NCBI GenBank assembly: GCA_001804805.1
Contig: MHBH01000077.1
Location: forward strand, 87,355 to 151,354
Source: Lentisphaerae bacterium GWF2_49_21
GTDB taxonomy: Bacteria; Verrucomicrobiota; Lentisphaeria; Victivallales; GWF2-50-93
DNA length: 64,000 nt
Direction of reading: 5' to 3'
Every line of letters starts with the position of its first letter. The stretch's first letter is position 1. Both the position numbers and the translations under genes were made by a program. Shown in pieces: positions 389 to 63,755 of this stretch. Below the pieces are notes generated by a model. That model ran no database searches. It was not told the origin of the DNA and saw nothing but the letters and a program-made list of their open reading frames with translations.

Positions 389-433
389 AAGCGTACTGCG
401 GCACGTCCACGAGGACAAGAATGCCCAATAAAG

Positions 434-1957
434 ATGGATGAGATTATGGCATCAAAAAAGTCTCTAAACGTACTTTTCATCTTCTCCGACCAGCACCGCT
501 GGAGCGCCCTGAACTGCTACGGCAACGCAGAGGTAATTTCACCCGCGTTCGACCGCATGGCCGAGGAGGGAGTGCGCTTCACGCACGCCATGAGCAGTTG
601 TCCGGTCTGTGCGCCCGTGCGCACAACGTTGCAGACGGGTCTGCACGCGCATCAGCACAATGTCCGTGGAAACCAGAGCCCCTGGGTGGGGCAGCATTTC
701 CGCAGCCTGGCCGACTATTTCAACGACGCCGGCTACGAGACCTGCTTCATCGGCAAGGCCCACTGGGGAAAGTACATGTTCTACGACATGAAGTGGAAGG
801 GCGGCTTTGTGCCGCCAGAAAGGCGCCTACGCTGGAAGCACTGGCTCAGCACGGAAGGCCACGTACAGTATGGGGAGAAAGTCTACGACGATGCTGGCGA
901 GGTTCTCTTTGACGGCACTGGCGTTCCCGAGGCAACTTTCGAGACCGGCTTGGCCTTCGACTTCATCCGGCAGTGCGGCGATAAACCATGGATCGCGCAC
1001 CTCGACTGGGGCCCGCCGCACACCATACAGCCGGGGCCGACCGTGAAATACAATGATGAATACTACGCACGTGGAAGACAGTTGAACAGGGATATGGGAT
1101 TCAACCTGCCAGACGAACTGTTCGTGGAAAAGGATCCCCGGCTGAAACTGCTCATGCCGCAGTCGCTCCTATTCGACATAGTGCCGCAGCGGTTCCTGGA
1201 CATGTACGATGTGGATTCAATCACAGTGGATCCAAACGTGCCTGAGCAATACCGGAAGCTTGCACGTTATCATTACCATGAATACTACGCTCTGATCACC
1301 AGCCTGGATGAGGAGCTTGCGCGGATTTTCGAATTCCTCCGGCAGACGGGCCATGATCGGGACACCCTGGTCGTCTACACCTCCGATCATGGGGACCGCA
1401 TCGCCGCACATTGCACGCTGGAAAAGTTCCGCACCAAGTCCAGTCCGCATCAGAACTCACTCCGGGTACCCCTCATGTTCTGGGGTCCGGGGCTTGGCGT
1501 TGGACAGGGCAAGGTGAACCAGACTCCGTTCAGTTCAGTTGATTTCATGCCGACCCTGCTGGACTGCATCGGCGTGCCTGTCGATGTCCACCTGCCTGGC
1601 GAATCCCTGAAAAATTGCTTCATGGGCGAATGCCGGGAGATGGAAAGGCACGTCCTGCTCAGCCTGGATCCGTGGCGCGCAATCACGGACGGACGTTACC
1701 TCTACGCGATCCGGAGCGAGGCGAAGGCCGGCCCGGTCCCGGTCTCGACCAGGAAACATGCCGTTCCGCCCGCGTGGACTCCGATCCATCTGATCGACAT
1801 GCAGGAAGATCCTTACGACATGCAGAACCTCCTGGAAAAACCCGAACTCCAGGCCGTACGCGAACGCCTGCACACGGAACTGGTGCGGCAGCTCATCGCC
1901 ACGTCCGACCATGACTTCGTGCTGCGGACGGGTCTTAAGCAAAGGGAATTGTTCTGA
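434..1957 (+). CDS. sulfatase (arylsulfatase A family)
   Basis: 507 aa. N-terminal LNVLFIFSDQHR and the formylglycine motif C-A-P-V-R (SSCPVCAPVRTTLQTG); C-terminal SDHGD. Confidence 0.9.
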   Translation: MDEIMASKKSLNVLFIFSDQHRWSALNCYGNAEVISPAFDRMAEEGVRFTHAMSSCPVCAPVRTTLQTGLHAHQHNVRGNQSPWVGQHFRSLADYFNDAGYETCFIGKAHWGKYMFYDMKWKGGFVPPERRLRWKHWLSTEGHVQYGEKVYDDAGEVLFDGTGVPEATFETGLAFDFIRQCGDKPWIAHLDWGPPHTIQPGPTVKYNDEYYARGRQLNRDMGFNLPDELFVEKDPRLKLLMPQSLLFDIVPQRFLDMYDVDSITVDPNVPEQYRKLARYHYHEYYALITSLDEELARIFEFLRQTGHDRDTLVVYTSDHGDRIAAHCTLEKFRTKSSPHQNSLRVPLMFWGPGLGVGQGKVNQTPFSSVDFMPTLLDCIGVPVDVHLPGESLKNCFMGECREMERHVLLSLDPWRAITDGRYLYAIRSEAKAGPVPVSTRKHAVPPAWTPIHLIDMQEDPYDMQNLLEKPELQAVRERLHTELVRQLIATSDHDFVLRTGLKQRELF

Positions 1958-9985: not shown

Positions 9986-9997
9986 GGTATCAGATTA

Positions 9998-10027
9998 TCG
10001 ACAGGATAACAGGATTAACAGGATAAT
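9998..10027 (+). promoter_or_regulatory. promoter module copy 1: TCGACA-N18-GATAAT, spacer = 3 x ACAGGATWA
   Basis: ACAGGATAACAGGATTAACAGGATAAT differs by 1 nt from the copy at 21497..21523. An inverted partial copy (AAAATCCTGTAATCCAGTC) lies at 10049..10067. Confidence 0.45.
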
Positions 10028-10102
10028 TATGCATAAAGGAAAATCATGAAAATCCTGTAATCCAGTCAAATAATAGATTATTAATAAAAGGAGGAATTGG
10101 AA

Positions 10103-14402: not shown

Positions 14403-14448
14403 GTATGTCGGGTTTTACCTGTACTGAGCATAGTCGAAGTAACCCGAC
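14403..14448 (+). repeat. REP-like hairpin, GTATG head, stem GTCGGGTT/AACCCGAC with a 26-nt loop insert
   Basis: GTATGTCGGGTT[ttacctgtactgagcatagtcgaagt]AACCCGAC. The insert is homologous to the loop inserts at 44880..44910 and 24175..24211. Confidence 0.7.
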
Positions 14449-18171: not shown

Positions 18172-18205
18172 GGAACGTCTTATTGTAATATTGAACCTGA
18201 AACTT

Positions 18206-18342
18206 GTTGGTAGTTAAGCCCGTAAGGACTGTTTCTGGGAGTAGGTACGTGCTTCAGCATGTACCATCTTAATATTCAGGATTGGGACAGGCTAAAGCCC
18301 GTCCCTACTTTAAGAACATGTCTTGCGACATTAACTACAAAC
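18206..18342. repeat. two-shell composite REP element (137 bp)
   Basis: Outer shell: GTTGGTAGTTAA+hairpin (18206-18230) and hairpin+TTAACTACAAAC (18318-18342). Inner REPIN: GTAGGTACGTGCTTCAGCATGTACC (18241-18265) and GGGACAGGCTAAAGCCCGTCCCTAC (18284-18308). Confidence 0.8.
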
Positions 18343-18390
18343 GAATTCAAATAGGCGATTTAAAAACCGCCAGACCTGGGAGGAAATACT

Positions 18391-18756: not shown

Positions 18757-18802
18757 AAGCGGCTATAAGAATACATTGCTAACTTGCTGCAGATATATTC
18801 CT

Positions 18803-18898
18803 GTTGGAGTTCACAGCTTTAGCGTGTGCATTTTTTTATTTTTTCATCCAGAAATTTCCCGGAATTACAAAGAACACGCTAAAGCTGTGAACTCCAAC
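18803..18898. repeat. GTTGGAG-headed REPIN doublet (perfect 25-bp inverted repeat)
   Basis: GTTGGAGTTCACAGCTTTAGCGTGT at 18803-18827 and its exact reverse complement at 18874-18898. Confidence 0.8.
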
Positions 18899-20883: not shown

Positions 20884-21477
20884 TCAATTGGATCGGCGCA
20901 GGTCTTCTTGTAATTTTTTAACGGCCTTATACTCCTCCGAATCTGATTCCGTGCCGGCGACTACCGCCTTCACTATCGCCGAAATCTTCTCCTGCTGCTC
21001 CGGATTTATCCCGGCTTTTCCAAGTATTTCAGAAACTCCATCGATATATTTTTTTCCGCTGGCGGAAAAAAATATTATGACAAGAGAAGTCTTCACGACA
21101 CACGGATCACACTTGGTTCCGCCAAGGACATTGTCCGCCAGCTTGCACGCCTTTTCAAGATCCTTCTGGGCTTTGTCATCCAGCTTGAACTGACTGGAAA
21201 GAAGCGCCTTGACCTTCTCGATTACAGGTGATGCTGATTCGTCCTTTGAAGCCCTTCCGAGGCACTGGTCGGCGAACTTGCACCATTTGGCGCAGCCAAG
21301 ATCTATTCTGGGATTCTTGATCTCATTGCTGCATTTTTTGCAGATAAGGAAAGGTTCATCTTTCCAGAATTCCATCTCATTGCCGCAGTGCGGACATTTC
21401 AGCGTGAATATGTCCTCCGGCTTCCAGAATCTCATGTCCTGCCCCGGACACCTTGGCCTTGCGTTGTCGGATTTCAT
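20884..21477 (-). CDS. zinc-ribbon domain hypothetical protein
   Basis: 197 aa. N-terminal CPHCG...CKKC plus further Cys pairs. I recognise no family. Confidence 0.55.
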   Translation of the reverse strand: MKSDNARPRCPGQDMRFWKPEDIFTLKCPHCGNEMEFWKDEPFLICKKCSNEIKNPRIDLGCAKWCKFADQCLGRASKDESASPVIEKVKALLSSQFKLDDKAQKDLEKACKLADNVLGGTKCDPCVVKTSLVIIFFSASGKKYIDGVSEILGKAGINPEQQEKISAIVKAVVAGTESDSEEYKAVKKLQEDLRRSN

Positions 21478-21493
21478 TTATCAAAACCTTTTT

Positions 21494-21523
21494 TTGACAG
21501 GATAACAGGATTTACAGGATAAT
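21494..21523 (+). promoter_or_regulatory. promoter module copy 2: TTGACA-N18-GATAAT, spacer = 3 x ACAGGATWA; candidate promoter of the C1 operon
   Basis: Perfect -35 at 21494-21499 and GATAAT at 21518-21523. The next plus-strand gene starts at 21985, implying a leader of about 450 nt. Confidence 0.5.
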
Positions 21524-21600
21524 AATATTGTATGCCTTAGCATGCGGAAATCAAGCTTAATATTTTCATGTAACCGCCGGACTCGCAACGTTCCTATTTC

Positions 21601-22948: not shown

Positions 22949-22970
22949 TTGATTTAGAAATTCGAAATTA

Positions 22971-22995
22971 GTTGGAGTTCACAGCTTTAGCGTGT
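22971..22995 (+). repeat. single GTTGGAG-headed REP
   Basis: GTTGGAGTTCACAGCTTTAGCGTGT, identical to 18803-18827. Confidence 0.75.
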
Positions 22996-24106: not shown

Positions 24107-24262
24107 GTAGGTACGGGCTTTAGCCTGTACCATTGGTACACCCTAAAGGGCATACCTAAGAAGTAGGGACGGCCTTTCTGTGTCCGGCGTAGCCTTTTGG
24201 CGAAGTCGGAAGGCTGTCCCAATCAAGAACGTAGAATGGTACAGGCTAAAGCCCGTACCTAC
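24107..24262. repeat. compound REPIN filling the whole intergenic gap (4 REPs)
   Basis: GTAGGTACGGGCTTTAGCCTGTACC at 24107-24131, directly after the TAA stop. Its perfect inverse is at 24238-24262. Inside are a degenerate REP (24135-24160) and GTAGGGACGGCC[37-nt insert]GGCTGTCCC (24163-24220). Confidence 0.85.
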
Positions 24263-25269: not shown

Positions 25270-25439
25270 GTAGGGACGGCCTTTCTGTGTCCGGCGTAGC
25301 CTTTTGGCGAAGTCGGAAGGCTGTCCCAAGCAAGAAAGCAGAATGGTACAGGCTAAAGCCCGTACCTAAGAAGTAGGGACGGCCTTTAGGCTGTCCCAAG
25401 TAAGAATGTAGAATGGTACAGGCTAAAGCCCGTACCTAC
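25270..25439. repeat. two tandem REPIN doublets
   Basis: 25270-25327 is identical to 24163-24220 (the insert-bearing REP). Paired REP at 25345-25366. GTAGGGACGGCCTTTAGGCTGTCCC at 25373-25397 is the insert-free version. GGTACAGGCTAAAGCCCGTACCTAC at 25415-25439. Confidence 0.85.
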
Positions 25440-35195: not shown

Positions 35196-35198
35196 TAA

Positions 35199-35228
35199 CG
35201 GACTGGATAACGGAATTTACAGGATTAT
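35199..35228 (+). promoter_or_regulatory. promoter module copy 3 (diverged): CGGACT-N18-GATTAT
   Basis: ACTGGATAACGGAATTTACAGGATTAT aligns with the 27-mers at 10001 and 21497. The -35 is weak. Confidence 0.3.
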
Positions 35229-35314
35229 TTTATGGTTATAATTCCCACAAAGAAAAAGTAATCTCTAGTCTGTGAAAGTCTGTGGCAAAATAATCTCAAA
35301 GGATTCTATATCTG

Positions 35315-36049: not shown

Positions 36050-36316
36050 TTAAAATTCTAACTTCTTGAGTAAGTGCTTGCTGATGAATGCCTTTCCTGA
36101 AGAAGATTTAAGATATTTCTCGAAGTTGAAGGCTGTAGCGGAGTCGGAAAACACAGTATATGTTTCTAGCTCCCACGGAGCATATCTTTTAGTGTATATC
36201 TGTGACTCTGAGTTATGTTCCTGTATTCTTCTTGAAAGATTTTCAGTGCAACCAACATAAACTTTATCTGGGGATTTAACACTTCTTAGGATATATACAT
36301 AATATTTTTCATTCAT
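36050..36316 (-). CDS. GIY-YIG nuclease family protein (small, stand-alone)
   Basis: 88 aa. YYVYIL...VYVGCT...R..EH motif series of the GIY-YIG domain. Confidence 0.8.
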   Translation of the reverse strand: MNEKYYVYILRSVKSPDKVYVGCTENLSRRIQEHNSESQIYTKRYAPWELETYTVFSDSATAFNFEKYLKSSSGKAFISKHLLKKLEF

Positions 36317-36432: not shown

Positions 36433-36508
36433 GTCGGGACGGTGAGATTCGAACTCACGGCCTACAGACCCCCAGTCTGACGCGCTAACCAGGCTGCGCT
36501 ACGTCCCG
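36431..36508 (-). tRNA. tRNA-Pro (anticodon GGG), CCA encoded
   Basis: Manual cloverleaf fold: acceptor CGGGACG/CGTCCCG, D stem GCGC/GCGC, anticodon loop CTGGGGG, T arm GTGAG-TTCGAAT-CTCAC, discriminator A plus CCA. Confidence 0.9.
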
Positions 36509-44867: not shown

Positions 44868-44991
44868 GTAGGTACGTGCTTTCCTGTCCTGAGCTTATCG
44901 AAGGGAGAATGTACCATCTTTTCTCAATAATGGTACACCCTGAAGGGCGTACCTACTTTTAAGAACATCCCTTACGGGATTAACTATAAAC
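44868..44991. repeat. REPIN doublet (left unit carries a loop insert) plus a right-hand outer-shell arm only
   Basis: GTAGGTACGTGC[tttcctgtcctgagcttatcgaagggagaat]GTACC (44868-44915); GGTACACCCTGAAGGGCGTACCTAC (44932-44956); ATCCCTTACGGGAT+TAACTATAAAC (44967-44991). Confidence 0.75.
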
Positions 44992-45136
44992 AAATTCAAA
45001 TCTCGTAGCTCTTCAACTTAAAATGGCCAATTTTATGCTCTGAAAAGATTGATTTCAGGTATCTCTTAGTGTAATTAATGCAAATGAATTTTGCAGTAAA
45101 ATTAAATCCTGAACCAATAACCTCAGAGAGACTACC

Positions 45137-46084: not shown

Positions 46085-46124
46085 CAGTTCTATCAACTTT
46101 GAGATTGAAAATCTTTTCAGGCAA

Positions 46125-46192
46125 GTTTGTAGTTAAGCCATTTTTGGCTGTGAATATAAACACGAAGAAACACGCAAGAATGCGTTAACTAC
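46125..46192. repeat. empty outer-shell element (no inner REPIN)
   Basis: GTTTGTAGTTAA+GCCA-TTTT-TGGC ... ACGCA-AGAA-TGCGT+TAACTAC. Confidence 0.7.
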
Positions 46193-46277
46193 CAGCAAAT
46201 AAACATACGATATTTTGACTGCAGCAGTTATTAACAGAGGCAATTTCAAAATTGCCTCTTTTGAGCTGATTGCTAAA

Positions 46278-46346
46278 GTAGGAGTTCACAGCTTTAGATG
46301 TGCATCCAATTGATGATAAGACACAACTGAAGTTGTGAACTCCAAC
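46278..46346. repeat. GT[A/T]GGAG-headed REPIN doublet
   Basis: GTAGGAGTTCACAGCTTTAGATGTG (46278-46302) and ACACAACTGAAGTTGTGAACTCCAAC (46321-46346). Confidence 0.75.
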
Positions 46347-49622: not shown

Positions 49623-49649
49623 ACGGAAAATCTAATTTCTTTGATACTC

Positions 49650-49674
49650 GTTTGTAGTTAAGCTCGCAAGAGCT
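49650..49674 (+). repeat. single outer-shell-type REP GTTTGTAGTTA+AGCTC-GCAA-GAGCT
   Basis: Same 11-nt head as at 46125 and 18206. GNRA-type loop. Confidence 0.7.
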
Positions 49675-49717
49675 GTTCTCCTCCCACTCCCTCTTTTTTT
49701 TATTATTTGATTTCATC

Positions 49718-49810: not shown

Positions 49811-49983
49811 GGAGCGCGGGTTTGACACTTCGCTGCCATCCCGTTGGGCTGCCCTAATTCGCAGGCTCATTTTCCAACCCGCGAGGCGGACTGGAAATAA
49901 ATCAATATAAGATGAAGACGGAAGCCGCTTAGCCGAGCAAAGCGACGCTTGCCGAAGGCAAAACGGCGTCCCTCCATGGCTTC
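49811..49983 (+). other. GC-rich multi-hairpin non-coding block upstream of cstA
   Basis: GGAG+CGCGGGTT[53 nt]AACCCGCG (49811-49883) and nested stems GAAGCC/GGCTTC, GACGC/GCGTC, TTGCC/GGCAA (49921-49983). No ORF. Confidence 0.4.
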
Positions 49984-52126: not shown

Positions 52127-52200
52127 TATTGGAGAATCCGCCTTCACAAAATAAGAGCTACGGCGGACACAGTCGGCGAAAAAACTCACCAGCTAAAAAA

Positions 52201-55355: not shown

Positions 55356-55620
55356 TCCGTAAATAAAGAATCTCCTGACGGCCATCCTATCCCCGCCGCA
55401 TCCGGCTTCGCAAGACTACGCCGTGACAAGAGCAGCGGGGTATTACGGACGCCCTCCCTCGCCTCGCGGCGGGCCGGATATTCTTTATAACAAAAGAAAT
55501 TCTAAGCCGACCCAAGGGTTCGGGGAATTTGACCCAACTAAGATTAATGGGTATGCCTCCCCTTTTGGCACAAATACCGCATCCCGCTTGGAAATAGCAG
55601 TTCCCCGCGTGTATTTTACT
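55356..55620. other. GC-rich structured non-coding region (candidate small RNA; strand unknown)
   Basis: No ORF. Complementary blocks CCCGCCGC/GCGGCGGG and ATCCGG/CCGGAT in mutually exclusive order. Hairpins at 55507-55524 and 55550-55578. Confidence 0.3.
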
Positions 55621-62945: not shown

Positions 62946-63087
62946 GCTGTAGCCGCGTCACTCTGATGACGCGTCTAGTATTGAAGAACACGCCAACAGA
63001 GTGGCGTGGCTACAGCAGAGCAATTATAGAAAAACAAATCATTAGAAACAGAAGGGACGCGTCAGCAGAGTGACGCGGCTACAGTGG
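62946..63087 (+). repeat. REP cluster (3 REPs), left direct repeat of the RAYT cassette
   Basis: GTAGCCGCGTCACTCTGATGACGCGTC (62949-62975, forward), GTAGCCACGCCACTCTGTTGGCGTG (62989-63013, reverse), GTAGCCGCGTCACTCTGCTGACGCGTC (63056-63082, reverse). Confidence 0.85.
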
Positions 63088-63113
63088 AAATAATTATATA
63101 AGGAGCATGCGAT

Positions 63114-63593
63114 ATGGAGGAATATCCTAAGAGACCGCCCCGCCTTACGACATTGTTCAGCGGCGTAAAACCATTTTATTTCGTAACGTTCAACACTCGC
63201 AACAGGAAAAGCGTTCTTGCAAATGACAAGATCTATGAACGTTTTCTATCCTTCTGCAATGAAGCGAAAGAACATGGAGTCTTCGTCGGGACATTCGTAA
63301 TCATGCCAGATCACATTCACTTGTACGTCTGGATAAATCTTGAAAGCTGTGGCCTCAAGAAATGGATTAAATCCTTGAAATGCTTTTTAAGCGTCAGTCT
63401 GGATGAAATGAACGTCAAAAGACCTCATTGGCAAGAAGGATTTTTCGACCATATCCTACGAAGCTCCGACAGCTACAGGGAGAAGAGCATTTACATGATG
63501 AATAATCCTGCAAGGGCAGGTTTATGTAAACCACCTGATGAATGGAAGTACAAAGGGACAATGAAAGACATCTACTGGTCTGACTACGATTAA
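63114..63593 (+). CDS. REP-associated tyrosine transposase (IS200/IS605-like Y1 HUH enzyme)
   Basis: 159 aa. HUH motif (MPDHIHLYV) and catalytic Tyr context (SIYMMNNP). Flanked by GTAG-headed REPs. Confidence 0.85.
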   Translation: MEEYPKRPPRLTTLFSGVKPFYFVTFNTRNRKSVLANDKIYERFLSFCNEAKEHGVFVGTFVIMPDHIHLYVWINLESCGLKKWIKSLKCFLSVSLDEMNVKRPHWQEGFFDHILRSSDSYREKSIYMMNNPARAGLCKPPDEWKYKGTMKDIYWSDYD

Positions 63594-63610: not shown

Positions 63611-63753
63611 GCTGTAGCCGCGTCACTCTGCTGACGCGTCTTGTATTGAAGAACACGCCAACAGAGTGGCGTGGCTACAGCAGAGCAATTATAGAAAAAA
63701 CAAATCATTAGAAACAGAAAGGACGCGTCAGCAGAGTGACGCGGCTACAGCGG
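63611..63753 (+). repeat. REP cluster (3 REPs), right direct repeat of the RAYT cassette
   Basis: REPs at 63614-63640 (forward), 63654-63678 (reverse) and 63722-63748 (reverse). Confidence 0.85.
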
Positions 63754-63755
63754 AA

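Follow-up and report, generated by a model that had tools for sequence, protein, structure and literature searches.

Hairpins of the repetitive extragenic palindrome (REP) type are abundant in a stretch of 64,000 nt from Lentisphaerae bacterium GWF2_49_21 (assembly GCA_001804805.1, contig MHBH01000077.1, positions 87,355 to 151,354 of the forward strand), hereafter the window, and some of them hold a small structured insert in the loop. These inserts, here called modules, are the subject of this work. The window has a GC content of ~50%, and about 15 of its hairpins share one form, GTAGG followed by a 9-bp stem with one G.T pair and a TTTA or TTCA loop. The host hairpins are ordinary REPs, with GTAG, a stem of 7 to 9 bp, and a TTTA or TTCA loop. 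As in described REPs and REP doublets (REPINs), the GTAG tetranucleotide marks the 5' foot of each imperfect palindrome, and the copies are extragenic and multicopy, all lie between open reading frames (ORFs), and they usually form inverted doublets (intergenic, at 18241/18308, 20685/20751, 21638/21705, 24107..24262, 25373/25439, and 43966/44034). The REPs at 24163, 25270, and 25373 occupy intergenic spacers of a CO-dehydrogenase/acetyl-CoA synthase operon, in the part from two cooC-like genes to cooS.

One REP is found there both empty and filled. The unoccupied site, GTAGGGACGGCC-TTTA-GGCTGTCCC, lies at 25373..25397 (+), as a first-pass annotation of the window had proposed. The same arms recur at 24163..24220 (+; covariance model E = 2e-5) and 25270..25327 (+), where, again as proposed, a 33-nt insert, CTGTGTCCGGCGTAGCCTTTTGGCGAAGTCGGA, splits the TTTA loop after its third base. 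In the first of these, GTAG occupies 24163-24166, its last G being the first base of the 5' arm GGGACGGCC (24166-24174); TTT (24175-24177), the module (24178-24210), the remaining A (24211), and the 3' arm GGCTGTCCC (24212-24220) follow. In the second, the module spans 25285-25317. Inspection of the junctions for target-site features, suggested along with the original observation, shows a clean TTT-module-A arrangement without target duplication, and shuffled versions of the window contain no match to the 33-nt insert. The two filled copies had been taken as independent cases. Both lie inside a 103-nt direct repeat of 97% identity, the 25270 element being a duplicate within a copy of 24159-24261, and so they count as one insertion followed by local duplication.

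The filled REP folds at -34.7 kcal/mol (z = -5.4) when treated as RNA and at -16.5 kcal/mol (z = -4.8) when treated as DNA. It forms one long hairpin, in which the REP stem is succeeded by a 7-nt 5' bulge (UUCUGUG), a UCCGGC/GUCGGA stem already noticed in the first reading, a GUA/GAA internal loop, and a terminal GCC-UUUU-GGC. Because the module is placed at the 3' edge of that loop, its hairpin stacks directly on the host 3' arm and extends the REP stem, and the remnant of the host loop together with the module tail makes up the 5' bulge.

Further modules are present in the same genome. Two inserts at 14403-14448 and 44868-44915, regarded initially as relatives of the 33-nt insert, do sit in the loops of hairpins with different stems, but they belong to another family, designated Fam1, whereas the family of the 33-nt insert is designated FamA. 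The REP-like hairpin at 14403..14448 (+; GTAT plus GTCGGGT / ACCCGAC, TTTA loop 14414-17) holds a 24-nt Fam1 module, CCTGTACTGAGCATAGTCGAAGTA, at 14418-14441 (+), which carries CCTGTACTGAGCATAGTCGAAG; the REP at 44868..44915 (+; GTAG plus GGTACGTGC / GAATGTACC, one substitution in the 3' arm) holds a 23-nt module with a 3-nt loop, CCTGTCCTGAGCTTATCGAAGGG, at 44883-44905 (+), which carries CCTGTCCTGAGCTTATCGAAG. Their E-values, 7e-6 and 7e-5, respectively, come from a profile built from other genomes only, and shuffles yield zero matches to the 23- and 24-nt inserts. The units measure 33, 24, and 23 nt, in place of the 26 to 37 nt given at first.

Empty counterparts of these hosts exist as well. 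REPs with GGTACGTGC are unoccupied at 18241, 20751, 21638, and 44034 and filled at 44868, and the empty copy of the 14403 host, at L275 3457 (-), is exactly the predicted site, GTATGTCGGGT-TTTA-ACCCGAC (L-numbers such as L006, L137, and L275 label the loci and contigs compared). A further Fam1 module, at L275 3371, occupies a GGACGGTT REP 6 kb upstream of the window. Filled and empty copies are thus known for at least three host stems (GGGACGGCC, GGTACGTGC, and GTCGGGT), and modules occur in at least four different REP stems of this genome plus one non-REP hairpin. The latter, a GC-rich hairpin at 55391..55440 (-; CCCCGCTGC / GCGGCGGGG; RNA fold z = -3.2), contains a short FamA module, CTTGTCA-CGGC-GTA-G-tcttg-C-GAA-GCCG-GA (55430-55401, -; covariance model E = 0.07). 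A degenerate FamA-like copy at 52172-52137 (-), CTGTGTC-CGCC-GTA-...-GAA-GGCG-GA, is a weak call (covariance model E = 0.4); its CTGTGTC tail is identical to that of the 24178 copy, and it lacks a host hairpin. The segment at 49811-49883, listed originally as a larger insert of the same kind, is unrelated to the modules, folds no better than its shuffles (z = +0.44), and was removed from the set.

To place the modules more widely, both families were searched for elsewhere. The Fam1 scan, with the pattern CCTGTNCTGAGCNNAN{0,1}TCGAAG and one genome per species, returned at least 120 matches, compared with the ~35 that chance alone was estimated to give over the whole collection. Among the 121 matches listed, conservation extends to positions that the pattern does not fix (G-1 in 96, C5 in 96, G15 in 118, G22 in 97, and R23 in 119). 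The consensus is RAG-CCUGU-N-CUGAGC-N3-4-UCGAAG-N'-R, in units of 23 to 24 nt with sharp boundaries, the sequence being random outside -3 to +24. At least 13 bacterial phyla are represented among the matches listed; the taxa are Proteobacteria, Acidobacteriota, Nitrospirota, Binatia, Methylomirabilota, Verrucomicrobiota, Planctomycetota, Bacteroidota, Cyanobacteria, Chloroflexota, Patescibacteria, Eremiobacterota, and Fibrobacter, with none from Firmicutes, Actinobacteria, or Archaea. The same loci, 0.93 Mb in all, contain 38 extra copies of CTGAGC-N2-6-TCGAAG where ~0.2 would be expected by our estimate, among them a subfamily with a 3-nt loop, CCGTTCG-NN-CTGAGC-YTG-TCGAAG-N'N'. Fam1 is absent from 5,426 Escherichia coli genomes and present in 28 viral contigs; the few plasmid matches have no annotation beneath them, and the cyanobacterial copies include a Nostocales genome (L012) and a Nostoc plasmid. 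Translation of Fam1 gives peptides such as ..PVLSEVEG.. and ..LSLSKG.., and the module presumably accounts for many spurious ORFs annotated as "hypothetical protein." In a Fibrobacter metagenome-assembled genome (L053 2964, 5209, and 6293), a repeat of at least 90 nt occurs three times, each time with Fam1 inside the hairpin CATTCCGGC...GCCGGAATC; there the module is carried along within the larger repeat.

FamA was sought in metagenomes with the core of the 33-nt insert, CGGCGTAGCC-N3-5-GGCGAAGTCG. At least 120 matches were obtained, all in metagenome contigs without taxonomy, and many resemble GC-rich coding noise: 67 of the 104 deduplicated matches lack the 5' tail, and 31 of those 67 have a 3-nt "loop." True copies read G-C-Y-T-G-Y-C/CGGC-GTA-GCC(C)-NNN-(G)GGC-GAA-GTCG/G-R, an architecture of CYUGYC-stem-GUA-hairpin-GAA-stem in units of 30 to 36 nt. 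FamA also occupies REP loops of the TTTA type in two unrelated metagenome contigs, where the stems are different again, GGTACGGGC (L137) and GGGACGGGC (L240). Since Fam1 and FamA share the 5' tail (C-Y-U-G-Y-C), the 3' end (..GAAG..GR), and the overall architecture, they are treated as related yet distinct; no single consensus covers both. The initial picture of a passenger that repeatedly occupies the loops of different REP families is essentially right, and the observation behind it is confirmed with corrections, one being that more than one module is involved.

Several FamA loci have features of their own. In L240, at 395-455 (-), the partner REP (GGTACGTGC/GCATGTACC) of the FamA-filled REP has a different, 36-nt insert, CCTGGTCGCCTATGGCGCCGCCGCAGGCGGGTAAAC, which lies 5' of the TTCA loop and starts with a similar tail, CCTGGTC; it may represent a third module family. 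At L158 1290-1420 and L216 6290-6420, FamA stands beside duplicated tRNA 3' fragments (GGTTCGATCC...CCA), apparent island or att junctions, and L216 has two FamA copies with completely different stems side by side. The T-arm-like flanks in L158 and L216 raised a possible link to tRNA; they are tRNA 3' fragments and not module-containing tRNAs.

Covariation supports the structure of the modules. The Fam1 hairpin comprises N-N', C-G, and U-A pairs, tandem G.A/A.G, and a G-C pair closing a C-N3-4-U loop. At N5/N22, the 121 copies listed have C-G in 93, G-T in 10, G-C in 5, A-T in 4, T-G in 3, and T-A in 2, with four non-pairs, and U4 pairs with R23 in 119. Both closing pairs covary in the subfamily with a 3-nt loop. 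In FamA, Y-2 and R+1 covary (C-G 22, U-A 12, and U-G 2), and a descriptor fixing only GTA...GAA plus pairing recovers 17 more copies with entirely different stems, compared with 2 in shuffles; many of the 17 have a YTGYC-like tail, and one, CCGACC-GTA-GCAC-gca-GTGC-GAA-GGTCGG, adjoins a canonical FamA copy in L216. The 5' RAGCCUG of Fam1 is conserved yet unpaired, so that CCUG in Fam1, like CYUG in FamA, stands single stranded at the foot of the module hairpin, where a REP has GTAG. Wobble pairs are unevenly divided in Fam1, with 13 G.T against 3 A.C at N5/N22 and T4.G23 in 71 copies, which indicates that one particular strand folds, either as RNA or as single-stranded DNA.

These results bear on the simplest alternative, that the similarity is due to chance or that the long loops are degenerate REP variants that evolved in place. 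The loss of 49811-49883 from the set and the weakness of the copy at 52137-52172 (E = 0.4) speak for it; profile and covariance-model E-values of 7e-5 to 7e-6, the shuffles without a match, and hundreds of near-identical copies in other phyla speak against it. We regard this explanation as having practically no chance of being correct, the family scans and the covariation having already refuted it.

Tandem arrays define the modules as discrete units. A 24-nt unit, CCTGTCCTGAGCGAAGTCGAAGGG, is repeated in L006, L016, and L062, and a 33-nt unit, CCTGCCCGGCGTAGCCCGAAGGGCGAAGTCGGG, in L208, the same sizes as the inserts in the window. Partial and nested module fragments are found in L005, L012, and L059.

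Of the 121 Fam1 copies listed, 31 adjoin a host stem of 7 bp or more, against 9.7 expected, which implies that hairpin loops are favored but not obligatory. The geometry in other phyla is that seen in the window, the 5' side being left unpaired over 2 to 5 nt and the module being abutted by the 3' arm of the host. Exclusive residence in REP loops is not supported, since only about a quarter of the copies elsewhere are in a host hairpin and two copies in the window are outside REPs. One copy (L113) lies in the loop of a terminator-like hairpin.

A core so strongly conserved across phyla, enclosed by pairs that covary, is what one would look for in a functional structured RNA motif, in which single-stranded CCUG and a hairpin with non-canonical pairs (tandem G.A or GUA/GAA) would bind a conserved protein or RNA. 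Such a motif would have been recruited repeatedly, with REP loops as one convenient scaffold, and its conservation would reflect the partner rather than mobility. The restriction of G.U pairs to one strand fits this explanation, as do the terminator-like host in L113 and a FamA copy kept at apparently the same site in diverged contigs (L129, L148, L153, and L193 versus L144). Orientation gives a divided answer. In and just upstream of the window, every copy in a unidirectional gene context (14418, 24178/25285, 44883, and L275 3371) has the sense orientation of its neighbors, though these represent few independent events, whereas in other genomes 69 copies are co-oriented with neighboring ORFs and 58 opposed, an absence of bias over 125 copies, with crude ORF calls, that points to the DNA level rather than the mRNA level. 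In addition, the tandem arrays and the partial or nested copies (L006, L012, L062, and L208) have the look of proliferation rather than placement, Rfam yields no matching family even at E = 10, and selection alone does not account for the arrival of the same 24-nt sequence in unrelated loops. Overall, we consider an RNA motif rather unlikely.

The modules might also have spread by recombination or repair without a dedicated enzyme, if loops are nicked or stall replication and the repair, by template switching or gene conversion, brings in a module copied from a different hairpin. Clean junctions without target duplication, the preference of the copies for structured DNA, tandem arrays that fit slippage, and the doublets with the filled REP at 25270 and the empty one at 25373, which are adjacent paralogues, can all be accommodated in this way. 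The arms of the hosts, however, are not homologous, as the modules occupy four REP stems, a GC-rich hairpin, and, in other phyla, unrelated hairpins, so homology-guided conversion would lack a match between donor and recipient, and the conserved unpaired 5' tail and constant insertion geometry are left unexplained. We judge this route improbable.

The reading to which we lean, by a modest degree of belief, is that the modules are mobile hairpin units of single-stranded DNA that spread by copy and paste. What is established is the anatomy, the existence of filled and empty sites, the covariation, strand-specific folding, the unit size, and a wide distribution; the enzyme, its single-stranded DNA substrate, and mobility itself are inferred. 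Within a genome, modules would increase in number through dispersed, tandem, and nested copying; the copying step would act on single-stranded, hairpin-folded DNA; exposed hairpin loops would be the preferred landing sites; and insertion would leave no target duplication. A likely agent would be an HUH/Y1-type enzyme of the RAYT (REP-associated tyrosine transposase) or IS200 kind. A conserved single strand of 4 to 6 nt at the 5' foot of an imperfect hairpin, as in REPs and the ends of IS200/IS605 elements, favors copy and paste of single-stranded DNA. An enzyme that handles single-stranded hairpin DNA is in fact present in the window, in the form of a RAYT gene at 63114..63593 (+; PF01797; NF047646, 85.1 bits, cutoff 80), with no tie to the modules. 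It is bracketed by repeats of ~145 nt (62946-63089 and 63611-63755, 96.5% identical) that hold three copies of a separate REP family, CTGTAGCC-GCGTCA-CTCTGN-TGACGC, and with these flanks it is a textbook RAYT/REPIN locus. The window thus has a RAYT flanked by REPs, though these GTAGCC REPs are a different subfamily from the hosts. A second ORF with REP doublets on both sides, at 20884-21477, was suspected to be a RAYT; it encodes a Cys-rich zinc-ribbon protein without an HUH motif.

A number of results weigh against mobility of this kind. No Y1/HUH gene was found in ~240 module-bearing loci and no RAYT flanked by modules, the window RAYT having its own REP family. The modules have no local GC-skew bias (53 of 109, with noisy 8-kb skews), where IS200/IS605-like elements would be expected to be biased, and the uniformly sense orientation of the informative window copies suits an RNA role equally. 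A match on one plasmid, under a GIY-YIG gene, suggested a link to that nuclease family, which a motif scan did not bear out (such genes in 0 of 120 loci from genomes and 1 of 120 from metagenomes; no enrichment). No presence/absence polymorphism between strains was seen, contigs with identical proteins being identical across the REPs or ending there. Finally, near-identical 22-nt cores across phyla are hard to reconcile with vertical descent of a selfish element and may reflect constraint from a conserved partner.

Among the contigs compared, DNKO01000089.1 (GCA_003488745.1) is near-identical to ENA ERZ27254744 k141_1019793; that genome encodes many sulfatases and DUF1559/prepilin-type proteins, which would point to the PVC superphylum. 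Over 20 kb compared between two near-identical assemblies, the sole difference is a 14-nt indel (L276 15394 versus L277), which lies in CAGGTGT/CAGTGTT heptamer-like tandem repeats just upstream of a gene. A GIY-YIG nuclease gene of 88 aa is also present in the window (36050-36316, -), immediately 3' of a tRNA (36434-36508, -) and bracketed by an imperfect direct repeat of ~40 nt (CATTCTTC...GCTTCGAATGGCAAG), like a small inserted cassette; the order of tRNA and then GIY-YIG recurs in L216 (5828-~6200).

A broader statement, which we put forward tentatively and with less confidence than mobility itself, is that hairpins of 23 to 36 nt with a 5' tail of 4 to 6 nt form a bacteria-wide class, the smallest known mobile DNA, copied into the 3' edge of exposed loops by a widespread, structure-recognizing machinery. 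If so, modules would remodel structured intergenic DNA and RNA, including REPs and terminators, in many phyla. Mobility would also lower the size limit of transposable DNA to ~24 nt and make hairpin loops a general landing pad. The factor that recognizes a CCUG tail plus G.A hairpin could be a nuclease or transposase or, alternatively, an RNA-binding factor. On the practical side, modules in loops make some REPs look "broken," and assemblies break at such sites; one contig of 1,095 nt ends at REPs. The absence of Fam1 from E. coli may explain why it escaped study.

Other repeats accompany the REPs in the window. One family consists of TTGTAGTTAAG, a short hairpin, and GTT, in that order; changes in the hairpin stem are compensatory, and the loop is GNRA-like (GTAA, GCAA, or TTTT). 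The family is found at 18198-18233, 18309-18352 (-), 44958-45001 (-), 46117-46152, and 49642-49677 and also in L137 and L276; inverted copies of it enclose REP doublets, and the resulting composite elements measure ~155 nt. A long palindrome family, GGAGTTCACAGCTTTAGCGTGT...ACACGCTAAAGCTGTGAACTCC, occurs at 18802-18898, 22970-22990, and 46277-46340 with a center that varies in sequence and size. Upstream of genes, a motif of three ACAGGAT units, GACAGGATAACAGGATTWACAGGATAAT (9995-10030, 21491-21526, and 35196-35231), may be a binding site for a regulator.

As far as checked, Fam1 and FamA are undescribed, with no match in Rfam, annotation, or the library of papers searched. Rfam searches with the window, the REP region, one module alone, 15 module-bearing loci, and a FamA pair gave only tRNA and RNase P above threshold, and searches of the modules themselves at E <= 10 gave nothing meaningful, the sole match, to C/D RNA at E = 9.6, being noise. 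Literature searches with module sequences, their reverse complements, and translated peptides returned nothing relevant, and the REP sequence retrieved primer coincidences only. The opinion that no equivalent had been described is accordingly upheld at the level of sequence and peptide; at the level of concept, a described counterpart exists, as set out at the end of this section.

Resemblances to known RNAs are local. The Fam1 segment UGA-G...C-GAA corresponds to hammerhead positions 7 to 14, with tandem sheared G.A on a G-C pair, and the CUGA box plus G.A pairs recalls the C/D k-loop. By inspection, the module has neither the three-way junction nor the CUGAUGA core of a hammerhead, and it lacks the 3-nt bulge of a C/D-like k-turn. 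Likenesses to 5S rRNA and the tRNA D-arm are too weak to use, and a suspected likeness to the primer hairpin of phage G4 was dropped as unconfirmed.

Among known mobile DNAs, a miniature inverted-repeat transposable element does not fit, as there is no target duplication (TTT-module-A), the only inverted repeat is the internal hairpin, and the units measure 23 to 36 nt. With IS200/IS605 elements, the modules share the absence of target duplication, a substrate recognized as a hairpin, and the importance of a short sequence 5' of the hairpin foot. In contrast, those elements require two end hairpins that differ from each other, and their target is a fixed tetra- or pentanucleotide, whereas a module has one hairpin and a varying left flank (TTT here and RAG elsewhere), and no replication-strand bias was detected. 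Derivation of a miniature element from IS200/IS605 was rejected on the single hairpin, the variable left flank, and the lack of a Y1 gene in the 240 module-bearing loci. Insertion sequences (IS) that target REP loops, IS1397/ISKpn1 and the IS621/IS1111 type, are named in PMC3116915, which refers to Tobes & Pareja 2006. They likewise use a REP hairpin or loop as a landing site, yet they are autonomous elements of 1 to 1.5 kb with a transposase gene, whereas the modules are 23 to 36 nt, non-coding, and without terminal repeats.

REPs and REPINs, which are served by RAYT (a Y1 HUH enzyme), resemble the modules in that a conserved tetranucleotide (GTAG in REPs and CCUG in modules) stays single stranded at the 5' foot of the imperfect hairpin and in strand-specific folding with G.T pairs, and module copies are likewise extragenic and multicopy. 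The module itself is nevertheless no REP: its foot is CCUG or CYUG and not GTAG, GUAG appears in FamA only within the internal loop, and copies are single or in direct tandem, with no inverted doublets. Modules are also half the size of REPs, and their sequence is nearly the same across phyla, in contrast to the lineage-specific REP families.

The closest known concept, compared by description and not by sequence, is the small dispersed repeats (SDR) of Nostocaceae, SDR1-8 and especially SDR5, which were reportedly described by Elhai et al. in 2008 (Genome Res 18:1484). SDRs, which PMC4390886, PMC5861425, and PMC2884548 discuss, are ultra-small (~21 to 27 nt), dispersed as well as tandem, thought to be mobile, and non-coding; PMC5861425 has them reported only in Nostocaceae, and PMC4390886 has SDR5 inserting precisely between nt 3 and 4 of the HIP1 palindrome. 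The modules differ in that FamA, at 30 to 36 nt, falls outside the SDR size range, in that Fam1 is not Nostocaceae restricted, extending to at least 13 phyla among the matches listed, and in that the targets are loops of REP and other hairpins. The likeness lies in Fam1, which at 23 to 24 nt falls within the SDR size range and is non-coding, dispersed, and tandem (L006, L016, and L062); insertion here, between nt 3 and 4 of the TTTA loop of a palindromic hairpin, is an analogue of the SDR5 case with a target other than HIP1.

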